Source of the DNA: Candidatus Njordarchaeota archaeon
GTDB lineage: Archaea; Asgardarchaeota; Njordarchaeia; Njordarchaeales; Njordarchaeaceae
DNA length: 28,522 nt
NCBI GenBank assembly: GCA_029856615.1
Contig: JAHKLF010000001.1
Span: 1 to 28,522 of the forward strand
Direction: 5' to 3'
In this document: piece by piece, positions 166 to 28,393 of the stretch
How the letters are laid out: each line of letters begins with the position of its first letter
How positions within the stretch are numbered: position 1 is the first letter of the stretch
Position numbers and translations under genes: made by a program
The notes under the pieces: model-generated
Seen by the model: only the letters and a program-made list of their open reading frames with translations
What the model was told of the DNA's origin: nothing
Database searches by the model: none

Positions 166-582
166 ATGCCGATGTTTTATATTAAACGTGAATTTTACGA
201 AGCTTTAATGAGAGGCCGGAAAAAAGCTGAAATTAGAGTCGGAGAACAATGGGTTAAAGTTGCTGAAAAGATAAAAAATTGTCAGATAAAACCATTAGCG
301 ATATTTAAATGGAGTAATAAGATAATTCTCAGAAAGATCTACAAAGTAGAAATATTTCCAAGCATCCGAAGGGCTCTGGCTAATGGACGCTGGAGATTAT
401 TAGGATTAAGAGCAAAGACTTATACGGAGGCAATAGCAGAGGTCAGTAAGCTATATTCACGAGGCGCAAAGGGACCTAGTGTGTTTTTCTGGCTTAGTAG
501 GCTTAAAAAAAGTGAAATTGATGATGCTATAAAATATGCGAAGAAAGAAATCAGCGATGAGGATTTATTTGTATCGGTCTGA
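166..582 (+). CDS. ASCH/PUA-like domain protein (putative RNA-binding)
   Basis: N-terminal FYIKREFYEALMRGRKKAEIRV fits the ASCH signature (I..Y..I..G.K..E.R); C-terminal helical part is also compatible. Confidence 0.7.
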   Translation: MPMFYIKREFYEALMRGRKKAEIRVGEQWVKVAEKIKNCQIKPLAIFKWSNKIILRKIYKVEIFPSIRRALANGRWRLLGLRAKTYTEAIAEVSKLYSRGAKGPSVFFWLSRLKKSEIDDAIKYAKKEISDEDLFVSV

Positions 583-628
583 GTGGTGCACGTTCTTCAT
601 TAGTATCCGCGCAGGTTAGTGTCTTCAT
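578..628 (-). ncRNA. Box C/D guide sRNA A (double guide)
   Basis: Minus strand reads C AUGAAGA (628-622), guide CACUAACCUGCG, D' CGGA, spacer UACUA, C' AUGAAGA, guide ACGUGCACCACU, D CAGA (581-578). It is 51 nt with two 12-nt guides, both antisense to 16S helix-34 consensus segments. Confidence 0.8.
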
Positions 629-710: not shown

Positions 711-766
711 ATGATGAGAATACGATTTTCGGATGAATTAATCATGAAGAACTGCCGTAGCTCTGA
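711..766 (+). ncRNA. Box C/D guide sRNA B (double guide)
   Basis: C AUGAUGA (711-717), guide GAAUACGAUUUU, D' CGGA, C' AUGAAGA (744-750), guide ACUGCCGUAGCU, D CUGA (763-766). The D guide is antisense to GCUACGGCAG, resembling the archaeal 16S ~1188-1197 segment. Confidence 0.8.
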
Positions 767-2864: not shown

Positions 2865-3656
2865 TTATTCAAAAAATTCATCTCGGAATTTAATCATACC
2901 AAAAGTTTCGGGATATGAACTAGAAAATATGGTTATTATTAACCGTCGGTCTCTGCGGAGTTTTTTAATGTAAAAGCGATTGTCTATGAATAATTCCCAT
3001 ACTCTACCTAATGCTGGAACAACTTTCTCCACTGTCCATATATCCTCAATATGCTGCCCAAAAACTTTCGACTCCATAAGTGATTTGTCCTCCTTGATGT
3101 AGGCTCTGACTTGATTAGATACTACTATTGTACATCCATCGGATATCTTTTGTAAGAAGACGCCTAATTTGACAACAGTATGTAAATACTCAGAAGACCA
3201 CGCCTCTTCATCCTTAAATAATAATTCGCTCTCTAATATAGTGGGAACGGAATCAATTATTAACAATACCTCATGATCAGAAGCATTTTCTTTAATTTTC
3301 CCGATCACAGTTCGCATCATGCCATGTAGATCATTTATTTGGTATACATAAATTCTAGATAATAAACTTCGTGCTTCAATACTATTTGCTAAACATAATT
3401 TCACTATTCTTTTAGGATTAAAGCTCTTGTCGGCATCGATGTATAGAGCTATGCCTTCTCTGTAGCTATAAAGAAAGCGAAATGCTAATTGATGAAGAAG
3501 AATAGTCTTTCCAGCACCGGCAGCGCCACAAATTTCTGTTATTTCATAAAGAGGAAAACCTCCATGTTTATCGAAGAACGCTATCCCAGTGAGAAAGTAT
3601 CTCTTATAACTACTTGAAATGCGCCTTATAATATCATCCTTCGTTGGAATGATCAT
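2865..3656 (-). CDS. RecA-fold ATPase, RadA/RAD51 paralogue (RadB- or RAD51C/D/XRCC3-like)
   Basis: TEICGAAGAGKT Walker A, ALYIDADKSF, LLIIDSV Walker B, VVSNQV, PALGRVW; no N-terminal HhH domain. Confidence 0.85.
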   Translation of the reverse strand: MIIPTKDDIIRRISSSYKRYFLTGIAFFDKHGGFPLYEITEICGAAGAGKTILLHQLAFRFLYSYREGIALYIDADKSFNPKRIVKLCLANSIEARSLLSRIYVYQINDLHGMMRTVIGKIKENASDHEVLLIIDSVPTILESELLFKDEEAWSSEYLHTVVKLGVFLQKISDGCTIVVSNQVRAYIKEDKSLMESKVFGQHIEDIWTVEKVVPALGRVWELFIDNRFYIKKLRRDRRLIITIFSSSYPETFGMIKFRDEFFE

Positions 3657-4372: not shown

Positions 4373-4498
4373 ACTACTCTCCTCATCGAATTTTTGATAC
4401 TTCCTATTGATTAAGAACTACAAAAGTGTTTTTAAATAAGCATTACTAACAGATTTGTTATAGTATATTAGTTATGGTATATTTTTCCGAGCACTGCC

Positions 4499-4547
4499 AT
4501 GATGATGGAGGTGATCTCTGATAGATGATGATTCCTTTAAGTGCTGA
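4499..4547 (+). ncRNA. Box C/D guide sRNA C (double guide)
   Basis: All four boxes are consensus: C AUGAUGA 4499-4505, D' CUGA 4518-4521, C' AUGAUGA 4525-4531, D CUGA 4544-4547. Guides UGGAGGUGAUCU and UUCCUUUAAGUG are antisense to the conserved 16S motifs GAUCACCUCC and ACUUAAAGGAA. Confidence 0.92.
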
Positions 4548-4561
4548 GCGTAGGTGATGAT

Positions 4562-5473
4562 ATGATTCATGCCGTATTTATATTGGATGCTTCTGGCGTA
4601 CCTATTCTCACGTGGAAATCCAAAAAAGCTCCCGAATCTTTATTTAAAGGAAAGGATGATATTCTAATAGGAAGCTTTATTACTGCTCTATTAAACTTTG
4701 GTCAGGAAACTTTCGCCGCACCTCAGCGAATAGATTTCAATGGATATGCATTAACTTTCTTTTCAAGTAAAGTGAATAATAGACTTTATTGGATAGCAGC
4801 GATATCTGATAGCAAGGATCATAGAAAAGCTACAATAAATATGTTAAAGGACTTAAGTCAACGACTGGCGGAATTACTCAGTGAAGCTTCCCCTGAAGAG
4901 GGTGTTGTCTTTGAGACTTCCAGAATAAAGCGTAAATCAGAAATGCTAATATATAATATAATCAAAAAACATCTAAGATTCCTACCAAATATCAGATCCT
5001 CTCCAGTAAAGTCATTTGTCTTCTCTCTGATTCTGTCATCGATAATAAGTTTTCTATTATACAATGTTGTAGCAACGAATTTCTTTATTAGTATATTTTC
5101 ATATATAATCGGTAATAATGAATTTCTACAAGGGGCTTTAATCATCTCACTTAACATAATAATCACCGGAGTAATAGCGGGATATTTAGCTTCTAGAATT
5201 TCAAGTGGTTTTCTATCCGCCTATATATCCAGTTTTATCACTTGGATATTAGCTGGAGGAGTCATGGTATTAGATATTCTCTTTATGATTACGTGGGCTA
5301 TTTCTTTTGCATTAATAGCGGGCATTATTGGAGCAGTCATAGGATTCTATGCTGATTCTCGAAAATTAAAGATAGTCGAACAACCAAGGATTCTAACAGT
5401 GGAAGAAATAGAAGAAATGGAGGGAGAAATAGAGGTTTCTGAAGAGGAATTAAGAGAGCTTGAAAACATTTAA
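4562..5473 (+). CDS. Longin-domain protein with C-terminal multi-pass membrane region and acidic tail
   Basis: IHAVFILDASGVPI...DDILIGSFITALLNFGQETF...IDFNGYALTF...WIAAISD...MLKDL is a longin pattern, followed by ~4 hydrophobic helices. ATG at 4562 follows AGGTGA (the track's GTG at 4541 lies inside the sRNA). Confidence 0.75.
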   Translation: MIHAVFILDASGVPILTWKSKKAPESLFKGKDDILIGSFITALLNFGQETFAAPQRIDFNGYALTFFSSKVNNRLYWIAAISDSKDHRKATINMLKDLSQRLAELLSEASPEEGVVFETSRIKRKSEMLIYNIIKKHLRFLPNIRSSPVKSFVFSLILSSIISFLLYNVVATNFFISIFSYIIGNNEFLQGALIISLNIIITGVIAGYLASRISSGFLSAYISSFITWILAGGVMVLDILFMITWAISFALIAGIIGAVIGFYADSRKLKIVEQPRILTVEEIEEMEGEIEVSEEELRELENI

Positions 5474-5487
5474 TTTAAAAATTAACT

Positions 5488-5880
5488 TCACTTTTGATGA
5501 AGTTTGATCTCAGTCCATAAATCGCGAGGCACAGATACGCCTACTAAGTATACTAAATCTTGCCTTGTGAGCTCTGCGACTATCAATCGCTTATGTATAC
5601 TAAATTCAAAGAAATCATATGTAGGAGTTCCTTCTCCGCATGGAGACTTCCTCACTGACAAGAAAAGCCTCTTTGTTGGTAATCTTATAGGACCAGAAAC
5701 TTTTGCACCTCTATTCTTAAGGATCGCAACTAAACTACGAGTGAATTCTTCTAATTTGCTTACATCAATCCCAGCTACCTTAAGAGCTATTTTCATTCTT
5801 CTTATGCCAGGTGATTTCCTTTGTACACGCCGTCTTGTGAACCTTCTTGTGAGCCTTTGACTAGCTTGCTCTGCGCTCAT
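5488..5880 (-). CDS. rps10: 30S ribosomal protein uS10 (divergent, Arg-rich N-terminal extension)
   Basis: GAKVSGPIRLPTK..VRKSPCGEGTPTYD.FE..IHKRLI. Confidence 0.92.
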   Translation of the reverse strand: MSAEQASQRLTRRFTRRRVQRKSPGIRRMKIALKVAGIDVSKLEEFTRSLVAILKNRGAKVSGPIRLPTKRLFLSVRKSPCGEGTPTYDFFEFSIHKRLIVAELTRQDLVYLVGVSVPRDLWTEIKLHQK

Positions 5881-5967
5881 ATTAATAACCTCGAATCAAT
5901 ACAATAATTATACAATCTCTCTTTCTGTTAGTTGTGAAAAAATAAAAAGTTAATCATTATTCGATTT

Positions 5968-6096
5968 TTATTTACGTCTTCTCCTAACTGCTATCTTCCT
6001 TTGCGCATATACGTGATGAAGTAAAATGGCAACAATAGTTAATATTCCAAGTAAATAAATTATGTACTCTACGAGATCTTGCGGACTTATCTGCAT
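5968..6096 (-). CDS. Unannotated 42-aa single-pass membrane protein, OST4-like
   Basis: MQISPQDLVEYIIYLLGILTIVAILLHHVYAQRKIAVRRRRK*; ATG 2 nt after the upstream stop with a purine-rich RBS; one TM helix plus a basic tail. The ORF is well supported; the OST4 identity is an inference. Confidence 0.7.
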   Translation of the reverse strand: MQISPQDLVEYIIYLLGILTIVAILLHHVYAQRKIAVRRRRK

Positions 6097-6098
6097 CT

Positions 6099-6788
6099 TC
6101 ACTCTTCCTCTTCCACTTCTATGATTCCTAATAACTCTTGAATGTGCCTTTCTACTCGCTTAATATTTGGAACTAACGGAAGACTAATCATTTTTCTTTC
6201 TGAGGGAAAATATAAAACTAATGTTCCGCTCCTAAATAAAGCATACTCAAATATATCACTGATTTCTATAGAATACTTCATTCCATGCGTTGGATAGCGT
6301 TCAATTTTGCCAAATATCCCTCTGTGATGGGTAATCTGATTGGGTTCTATAATCCAATAATCCCATCGCCTACTAAGCCATATTAGAAACAGTGTAAATA
6401 AGAATCCAAAACCTACTAAGAAGTACGCATGACTTGATAAATACGCTTCTACGCCTAATAAAGCTTCAATCAATAAAGATCCTGGCACCACCTTTAGCTG
6501 TGCTAATAACAAGTAAACGAGAACAAGGATAACGATAATAGTTATTAATCCAAATGTTTTTGCCTCATTAAACTCAAATGCTATGATGAAGACGTTAAAT
6601 ATCAAGAAAAGAACGAATACGAGACCTAATGCTTTCTGGACACTAGGTAATGTACCTATGAATGGTATAGATTCTATCGTACCAAATATTATTGCAAGCA
6701 CAGCCGTTGGAAGAAGAGTAACAACTTTAGGATACGATCTTACAATTATTTTTTCTACCTCAGAGGAAGGCTTATTTGACGGTTGCAT
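6099..6788 (-). CDS. Multi-pass membrane protein with C-terminal bacterial PH-like domain
   Basis: About 4 TM helices, then YWIIEPNQITHHRGIFG...IFEYALFRSGTLVL (bPH-type pattern). Start moved to ATG 6788, which is preceded by GGGGTG. Confidence 0.7.
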   Translation of the reverse strand: MQPSNKPSSEVEKIIVRSYPKVVTLLPTAVLAIIFGTIESIPFIGTLPSVQKALGLVFVLFLIFNVFIIAFEFNEAKTFGLITIIVILVLVYLLLAQLKVVPGSLLIEALLGVEAYLSSHAYFLVGFGFLFTLFLIWLSRRWDYWIIEPNQITHHRGIFGKIERYPTHGMKYSIEISDIFEYALFRSGTLVLYFPSERKMISLPLVPNIKRVERHIQELLGIIEVEEEE

Positions 6789-28292: not shown

Positions 28293-28393
28293 GCCGGGGT
28301 TGCCGAGCTGGAACGGCGCCGGACTTGAGATAAGAACACTAGAAATCCGGTGGCGATTTCGCCTCGCGGGTTCGAGTCCCGCCCCCGGCACCA
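28293..28393 (+). tRNA. tRNA-Ser(UGA) with 15-nt intron (28330-28344) at 37/38, CCA encoded
   Basis: Same body as the tRNA at 19141. Anticodon stem CCGGA/TCCGG encloses 22 nt; removing ATAAGAACACTAGAA leaves the loop CT-TGA-GA. Confidence 0.9.

Follow-up and report, generated by a model that had tools for sequence, protein, structure and literature searches.

A candidate dual-guide box C/D sRNA in a Njordarchaeota genome with guides for the anti-Shine-Dalgarno tail and the 912 region of 16S rRNA

Can one short RNA serve both the extreme 3′ end of 16S rRNA, which holds the anti-Shine-Dalgarno (anti-SD) sequence, and the strand that closes the central pseudoknot some 600 nucleotides (nt) away? 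The question is raised by positions 4499-4547 (+ strand) of a 28,522-nt stretch of DNA from Candidatus Njordarchaeota archaeon (assembly GCA_029856615.1, contig JAHKLF010000001.1, positions 1 to 28,522), referred to here as the window. An earlier note, made from the letters of the window, had described at this place a box C/D small RNA (sRNA) with perfect boxes and two 16S guides in an Asgard-type archaeon, and had proposed a U3-like role for it. The follow-up analysis gives a probability of roughly 0.8 that the locus is a canonical archaeal dual-guide box C/D sRNA, called sRNA-A below, which would chiefly methylate C1533 and U912. The Asgard-type host agrees with the record titles of congeners (Njordarchaeota/Promethearchaeati).

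The four boxes were found as claimed, reading ATGATGA, CTGA, ATGATGA and CTGA in order (Table 1). The layout is that of the class: an RUGAUGA box C near the 5′ end and a CUGA box D near the 3′ end, with internal boxes D′ and C′, guides of 12 + 12 nt and a 3-nt spacer. Twelve nt is the optimal guide length in archaeal box C/D sRNAs. When the window was scanned with Rfam at gathering thresholds, two tRNAs alone were reported and no curated family was assigned to sRNA-A. A permissive scan of 4400-4650 gave 25 matches, every one to C/D-box s(no)RNA families, and 24 of these were on the + strand, the lone - strand match being to the yeast snR71 model. The best bit scores, given with the gathering threshold, were those of sR41 (28.5/54), sR1 (26.5/45), snoPyro_CD (25.6/45) and sR14 (24.3/38), all four models being matched end to end at 4495-4550 (+). 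Rfam C/D families are guide-specific; an architecture that matches the class at scores below gathering therefore places sRNA-A outside every curated guide-specific family.

A strict four-box pattern was present at 19 loci of the 1.8-Mb genome (36.6% G+C), and a relaxed pattern at 33. Neither pattern occurred in any of five Markov-1 random genomes, so the four-box arrangement is not a product of chance.

Table 1 Coordinates of sRNA-A, of its surroundings in the window and of two further tail-directed sRNAs on other contigs of the genome
Feature	Position	Strand	Remarks
Box C/D sRNA (sRNA-A)	4495..4551	+	Rfam sub-threshold matches 4495-4550 and conserved block; ends approximate
Box C, ATGATGA	4499..4505	+	read in sequence
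D′ guide TGGAGGTGATCT, 12 nt	4506..4517	+	pairs with 16S 3′ tail GGAUCACCUCC(U); N+5 = C1533, inside anti-SD
Box D′, CTGA	4518..4521	+	read in sequence
D′-C′ spacer TAG, 3 nt	between 4521 and 4525	+	
Box C′, ATGATGA	4525..4531	+	read in sequence
D guide TTCCTTTAAGTG, 12 nt	4532..4543	+	pairs with 16S ACUUAAAGGAA; N+5 = U912
Box D, CTGA	4544..4547	+	read in sequence
TATA-like element ATAGTATATTAG	4460..4471	+	by eye, ~27 nt upstream of box C; candidate promoter, inference only
Shine-Dalgarno GGTGA of downstream gene	4553..4557	+	kept ahead of start codon in homologues
303-aa protein, longin-like N-terminal domain (lead), hydrophobic C-terminal half	4562..5473	+	open reading frame
Second tail sRNA candidate (sRNA-B; L154/L156)	contig C3 ~3044-3113	-	D′ guide AGAGGTGATCCT, N+5 = U1532
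Third tail candidate (L155/L164)	contig C246 ~3398-3467	-	D′ guide GGAGGAGGTGAG, N+5 = C1535; D guide matches 23S

The targets were located on rRNAs of the same-genus genome G005, a partial 16S (L018) and a 23S (L153). Fifteen of the 66 guides from the genome's 33 C/D candidates were perfect on these two sequences and the proxy was therefore judged adequate. Both guides of sRNA-A gave 10 of 10 Watson-Crick pairs (guide positions 2-11) on the 16S, at exactly the two sites that had been claimed, and a score of 10/10 was reached by none of 198 shuffled guides. The duplex energies were -20.2 kcal/mol for the D′ guide and -13.6 kcal/mol for the D guide. The D′ guide pairs with the very end of the 16S, and its N+5 position, the nucleotide opposite the fifth guide base upstream of the box, is the C of GAUC. 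As a Nanoarchaeum guide shifted by one nt is assigned to A1534 (PMC5389701), this C is C1533, in agreement with the earlier note. By complementarity to 16S ~1530-1540 and an N+5 within the anti-SD, sRNA-A is thus an anti-SD-tail guide. For the D guide N+5 is the second U of ACUU, which we take to be 912 in E. coli numbering, the number that the earlier note also gave. The duplex of this guide covers G916-A918, presumably the 3′ strand of the central pseudoknot. Guides in the same register (Sac sR101, Pca sR56 and Mka sR114) are assigned to 16S U894 in the supplement of PMC4644070.

Guides of this class have at least 9 bp with rRNA or tRNA and a Watson-Crick pair at N+5. Since a Watson-Crick pair is formed at both N+5 positions, both sites are competent for methylation. 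On L018 they are 617 nt apart; for the genome's other dual guides with both targets mapped the separation is 60-195 nt. Among 11 small-subunit rRNA loci examined in relatives, two of them 5′ halves, GATCACCTCC was found in nine and AAAGGAATTG in seven.

BLAST of 4440-4640 found sRNA-A in four genomes of the same genus (G001, G002, G004 and G006) and in G008, of another family. In an alignment of seven homologues (A1) the boxes and guide cores are invariant, save for box variants in G001/G002 and relatives, and the flanks, the D′-C′ spacer and the outermost guide bases are variable. The core GGAGGTGATC of the D′ guide is the same in 7/7. Box C departs from the consensus in G001 and G002 alone, where ATGAAGA is accompanied by a box D of CGGA; box D′ variants in relatives are CGGA and CAGA. 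The AUGAAGA and CGGA changes alter both partners of a non-Watson-Crick pair beside the sheared G.A pairs and are tolerated in a kink-turn (k-turn), but as one event in two sister genomes this co-variation is weak support.

A pattern search for box C, GGAGGTGATC and box D′ as one module returned exactly one match in 13 of the 14 genomes of the order, while the reversed module gave two matches in total over the 14 genomes. On this count the sRNA that the earlier note had described is real and conserved. Public metagenomes yielded 71 pattern matches, seven of which have boxes and include four sequence variants beyond the genome-derived homologues. The remaining 64, together with 15 bacterial dual-pattern matches, are without boxes and were set aside as chance.

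The partner guide has a different history. Six of the seven genomes in the genus of the window have the D guide [A/T/G]TCCTTTAAGT; that of G008 is a diverged form of it (ACCCATTAAGTG) and that of G009 is unrelated. In family f2 (five genomes) G007, G011 and G013 carry guides such as AACCCGGCTTTC, which pairs 12/12 on the G005 23S, and G010 and G012 have other A/T-rich D guides for which no rRNA target was found. The sole 16S available from f2, that of G010 (L006), reads ACUGAAAGGUUUAGG at the 912 site, so that the U912 guide is lacking where its target has changed too. By these patterns the U912 guide as a partner of the tail guide is, within the order, confined to the window's genus. The earlier note had let its proposal turn in part on whether the second guide is conserved, and the answer is divided: it is kept in the genus (6/7) and replaced in the sister families. 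In the same G010 16S ACUGAAAGGUUUAGG stands in place of the ACUUAAAGGAAUUGG of nearly all archaea, an unusually diverged central core.

Several observations weigh against the assignment, or against part of it. The 16S and 23S of the host are absent from its assembly (300 contigs, 76% complete), and G005 is listed with 12% contamination, hence some risk in the proxy rRNAs; the complementarity to the host 16S that the earlier note wished to see confirmed was found, at 10/10 pairs per guide, on the same-genus sequence, the host's own being unassembled. Fibrillarin and Nop5 were not found in the same 76%-complete genome, and in the window the terminal stem that flanks boxes C and D is a weak one. 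As regards an obligatory bridging of the two sites, the tail guide keeps its position across the order and its partner varies (a 23S guide in f2, others in f3/f4), an exchange that counts against such a bridge; in other phyla the tail guides are, moreover, coupled to helix-44 or unidentified guides. On the other side L7Ae is encoded in the host genome, and fibrillarin in 5/5 congeners.

By analogy with its family, sRNA-A would fold its C/D and C′/D′ boxes into a k-turn and a k-loop and bind L7Ae, Nop5 and fibrillarin. The resulting ribonucleoprotein (RNP) would then 2′-O-methylate the 16S nucleotide at each N+5 position, which from complementarity would be C1533 in the anti-SD tail for the D′ guide and U912, at the helix 27/helix 2 junction, for the D guide. 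A methylation-guide role is well supported by the sequence evidence. The targets are ~617 nt apart and mark the two ends of the 16S 3′ domains, so that a single RNP, or a di-RNP, could also grip both sites simultaneously in a late pre-30S particle. The 3′ tail and the pseudoknot strand would then be tethered and occluded for a short time, up to their methylation and release. Transient tethering or masking of this kind is suggested by the geometry and is plausible.

Both targets and the chaperone or checkpoint idea are already in print (PMC5389701, PMC4644070). In N. equitans Um1528, Gm1530 and Am1534 have been mapped by matrix-assisted laser desorption/ionisation mass spectrometry and RiboMeth-seq (Seistrup et al. 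2017, PMC5389701). The last of these is guided by Neq sR13 through a duplex over 1531-1540, and the same paper proposes that the folding of helix 44/45 is slowed by sR13, an RNA that would in this way replace the RsmA/Dim1 'folding checkpoint'. With the same methods it also records a measured Cm1533 in the anti-SD of Ignicoccus hospitalis, the guide sRNA being given there as unknown. In the PMC4644070 supplement the D guide of sR13 is without a target ('NP'). Like sR13, sRNA-A is a C/D guide complementary to 16S 1531-1540 with its methyl site in the anti-SD, but its register is one nt off and equals the Ignicoccus Cm1533 site. The tail guide is at the D position in sR13 and at D′ in sRNA-A, and the partner of the former is helix 44 (A1408), ~125 nt away, whereas that of the latter is U912, at ~617 nt. 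A helix-44 (1405-1415) partner of the sR13 type is seen in DPANN sRNAs and is lacking in sRNA-A.

The two organisms differ in one further respect. Nanoarchaeum is without KsgA/Dim1, whereas a homologue was found in the host of sRNA-A and in 4/4 congeners, so that sRNA-A is not a stand-in for a missing checkpoint enzyme. A strict four-box C/D candidate (contig C263, 5381-5431, +) was observed ~70 nt upstream of this KsgA/Dim1 (RrnaAD) homologue (5503-6276, +).

The D guide belongs with the 'UCCUUUA' guide family, which comprises Sac sR101, Pca sR56 (and sR57) and Mka sR114 (Dennis et al. 2015, PMC4644070; Lui et al. 2018, PMC6009581), and shares its core and register; the same U is there called U894 or U877. 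Pca sR56 is listed there among long-range 'chaperone' candidates. The partner guides of this family are directed elsewhere, that of Sac sR101 at G868 and that of sR56 at a site ~30 nt downstream, with a possible second site at G1358, and no member has a partner aimed at the 16S 3′ tail as sRNA-A has. A precedent for the wide spacing is Neq sR17 (A915 + U1371), the subject of a long-range double-guide model in which distant strands are brought together in 30S assembly (PMC4644070, Fig. 5, Table 3). That model is treated also in PMC6009581, and PMC7994747 reviews both topics. As in sRNA-A, one sRNA serves the 915 region and a site hundreds of nt downstream; the sR17 targets, however, later form helix h28, whereas those of sRNA-A are not known to pair mutually. 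What is new here is the coupling, in one sRNA, of tail and U912 guides for sites 617 nt apart. No report of this pair in one sRNA was found in the literature searched, in which spelling variants can hide papers. In the same searched literature little came up on C/D sRNAs of Asgard-affiliated archaea, namely PMC9887622 and PMC10134959, which name Asgard and mention 'box sRNA' once each; sRNA-A with its 18-32 sister candidates offers a first sketch of them for one such lineage.

The likeness to U3 that the earlier note suggested can now be judged. U3 snoRNA base-pairs to the 18S strand destined for the 3′ side of the central pseudoknot, whose formation it thereby delays, and the D guide of sRNA-A would likewise delay the pseudoknot while bound. 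This is the single point of likeness. U3 exceeds 200 nt, contains the six boxes A, A′, B, C, C′ and D, base-pairs to the 5′ external transcribed spacer and the 18S 5′ end and guides no methylation, whereas sRNA-A is ~55 nt long, has C/D′/C′/D boxes alone and has methylation-guide geometry. There was no U3 match at sRNA-A in either the gathering-level or the permissive Rfam scan, and we know of no U3 in archaea. In its anatomy, with a small size, standard 12-nt guides and a Watson-Crick N+5 pair at both sites, sRNA-A is thus not U3-like.

sRNA-A appears not to be the only sRNA of its genome directed at the 16S tail (Table 1). A BLAST search with the sRNA-B locus gave matches in 9/15 genomes searched, its own included, and the module of box C, D′ guide and box D′ was present in all eight loci inspected (G000, G001, G002, G003, G005, G008, G010 and G011); the match in G013 had no locus and was left out of the inspection. 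The D guide of sRNA-B is A/T-rich and orphan in most genomes. In G001/G002, however, it reads GAGAATTCCTTTAG and pairs 10/10 with UUAAAGGAAUU, N+5 being A915. There sRNA-B would target U1532 + A915 and would therefore be a second sRNA that couples the tail with the pseudoknot strand. The third candidate, on contig C246, recurs in G004. A weak match to it in G003 was rejected as a different sRNA, as it has the 23S-type D guide alone and is without a tail guide.

If all three sRNAs act, the anti-SD core UCACCU is predicted to carry up to three ribose methyls. SD-type 5-mers stand at -18 to -4 of 21.6% (292/1354) of the first in-frame ATGs of long open frames, compared with 3.4% (111/3295) of internal ATGs. 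The most frequent of them is GGTGA, upstream of 9.4% of first ATGs vs 0.76% of internal ones (12-fold); for AGGTG the figures are 8.5% vs 0.52% (16-fold). Both 5-mers pair with 16S 1532-1537, and the anti-SD core in use by the organism is UCACCU.

Guides for the tail extend far beyond the order. When one genome of each prokaryote species was searched for the tail guide between TGATGA and CTGA, 21 matches were obtained. The titles of 18 of these records are archaeal (Desulfurococcaceae/-ales, Thermoprotei, Woese-, Undin- and Altiarchaeota, Thermoplasmata, 'Heimdallarchaeota', which is G009, and Njordarchaeota), and the partner guides differ among these sRNAs. With a wider register there were at least 20 four-box sRNAs among the 120 matches listed, including Nanoarchaeum sR13 and a DPANN family at C1535; most other matches among those listed have bacterial titles and are probably chance or SD matches. 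The anti-SD tail would thus be a widespread C/D target, with guides for C1533-C1535 in records titled as Desulfurococcales, DPANN groups, Altiarchaeota, Thermoplasmata and Njordarchaeota.

Some of these sRNAs touch on the measured Cm1533 of I. hospitalis. In Desulfurococcaceae sRNAs (L042, L046, L049, L052 and L055) CTGA is preceded by GGGAGGTGATCA, a guide directed at C1533. This 12-mer recurs in Ignicoccus IHOsR305, whose boxes are poor and for which the PMC4644070 supplement gives 'NP'. From their sequences all of these are candidates for the sRNA behind that methylation.

The U912 guide alone gave 19 matches, 13 of them archaeal (Vulcanisaeta, Thermoproteales, Geothermarchaeota/Nitrososphaeria and ANME-2). 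Where its partners were mapped, in Vulcanisaeta and two Thermoproteales-type sRNAs, they have a 16S site ~30 nt downstream. A strict four-box pattern undercounts, recognising 11/21 and 8/19 and missing known positives with a box C′ of ATGATGT or GAGGA. The guide is also present in 6/17 genomes of the order around G031, which is distant and of Nitrososphaeria type. In G031, G032 and G042 the same sRNA has, in addition, [G/T]GGAGGTGAAT before an AUGA D′ box, with spacers that differ. On G032's own 16S the tail guide has 8 bp to UCACCUCC at -15.4 kcal/mol, the D guide has 10 bp, and the sites are 615 nt apart. A pair of guides for the two regions, of the kind for which the earlier note had recommended a search, is present in 3/17 genomes of this distant order. 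In all, a tail guide is paired with a 912-region guide in three sRNA architectures and two distant lineages, by common descent, transfer or convergence.

This recurrence, in the sRNA-B of G001/G002 and in the distant order, makes a tethering role likelier; it is weakened by the presence of KsgA and by the freedom with which the partner guide is exchanged from family to family. Taken further, the coupling of the tail with the pseudoknot strand (912-919) might itself be selected, the RNP serving as a late-assembly tether or timer, a functional analogue of the U3 checkpoint, and together with its two sister sRNAs placing up to three ribose methyls on the anti-SD, by which SD-dependent initiation could be tuned. 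The tail, whose UCC resembles the helix 2 5′ strand, would be held off G916-A918, and the anti-SD and the 3′-end cut would be blocked until both sites are methylated. We think this unlikely as a whole. If the pairing of tail and pseudoknot strand is functional, it would provide a testable RNA candidate for the archaeal timing of central-pseudoknot formation and 3′-end maturation.

Also unlikely is the stronger form of the U3 comparison, in which the main work of sRNA-A would be that of a non-catalytic chaperone of assembly, or of quality control, masking the anti-SD and the 3′ end and keeping the pseudoknot open, with methylation as a by-product. The 617-nt separation, the largest among the genome's dual guides with both targets mapped, speaks for this, as do the coupling of the tail with 912-915 in three sRNA architectures and the published hypotheses of this kind for Neq sR13 (PMC5389701) and Neq sR17 (PMC4644070). 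Against it, sRNA-A has a Watson-Crick pair at N+5 of both of its methylation-competent sites; its guides are of the standard 12 nt, with neither extended complementarity nor an extra domain, the partner guide is swapped in sister families and a KsgA/Dim1 homologue is present.

The surroundings of sRNA-A bear on a different kind of explanation. The ATG of the downstream gene is 14 nt beyond box D. Its 303-aa product had no Pfam match, and a model of residues 1-125 (Atlas) resembles the longin-type domains Fuz_longin_1, Sybindin and Clat_adaptor_s with a template-modelling (TM) score of 0.73-0.79 by query. A longin/roadblock-like N-terminal domain is a lead from this model, and to that extent the longin gene named in the earlier note is upheld. 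Homologues occur across the genus and follow the sRNA by 8-33 nt in G004, G005, G006 and contigs L106 and L139, and by eye in L097. In G001 and G002 no homologue follows the sRNA, and that of G001 stands elsewhere without one. There is no T-run between sRNA-A and ATG 4562, whereas T6-T7 runs stand immediately after the stand-alone copies in G001 and G008. The lack of a T-run, together with an sRNA-gene adjacency that recurs in G004, G005, G006 and metagenome contigs, makes co-transcription with the longin-like gene plausible. A/T-rich elements similar to the TATA-like one of the window lie 22-27 nt upstream of the sRNA in G008, G001, G002 and G005; in the window sRNA-A is probably transcribed from a promoter of its own, as the 5′ leader of the mRNA for the longin-like protein.

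On the other side of sRNA-A the neighbour is a divergent Spt4 gene. In G004, G006, L097, L106, L139 and L141 a tRNA-Asn(GUU) lies 45-75 nt upstream of the sRNA. The tRNA-Asn of the window is away from it, at 2262-2337 on the minus strand, and the locus has thus been rearranged. The order tRNA-Asn(GUU), sRNA, longin-like gene in L013, L015, L097, L106, L139 and L141 suggests a tRNA-sRNA-mRNA transcript.

This arrangement could be read as that of a leader, with GGAGGUGAUC as the ribosome-binding site of a mini-ORF (a small open reading frame), MMIPLSAERR, or as a standby site or L7Ae-controlled leader of the longin-like gene, the box pattern being secondary. An AUG does stand 4-13 nt beyond the SD-like guide in all 10 homologues examined, SD motifs are in use in the organism, the longin-like gene is in most contexts directly next to the sRNA and there is a report of L7Ae bound to leaders of mRNAs (PMC5539422). 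The AUG is, however, an unavoidable part of box C′. The mini-ORFs range from 8 to 37 aa and have in common the residues P-L-S alone, which are encoded by the guide; the bases that vary are the first and second of codon 3, and the third-codon positions within the guide never vary, the pattern of selection on RNA and not on peptide. The box C/D co-variation (AUGAAGA + CGGA) likewise fits a k-turn and not a peptide. In G001 and G002 the sRNA is, besides, away from the longin-like gene, with a T-run after the G001 copy and a longin-like gene without the sRNA in G001. A leader or ribosome-binding site in place of a guide sRNA is, on this evidence, very improbable.

A box-like pattern that arose by chance, or the remains of an sRNA no longer made, would accord with the failure to find fibrillarin and Nop5 in the incomplete assembly, but either reading of sRNA-A is scarcely credible, being contradicted by the empty random genomes, by boxes and guides that are invariant over seven genomes and four further metagenome variants, and by the tail-guide module in 13/14 genomes of the order.

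The window contains a few other RNA candidates. A 92-nt tRNA-Leu(AAG), called by ARAGORN at 28302-28393 (+) and unreported by the Rfam gathering scan, may hold an intron or be a false call. Two more four-box C/D candidates, at 578-628 (-) and 711-766 (+), are divergent and 82 nt apart. The second has one 16S near-match and one orphan guide; the first has two 16S sites ~160 nt apart, of which one is perfect and the other has a single mismatch on the G005 16S.

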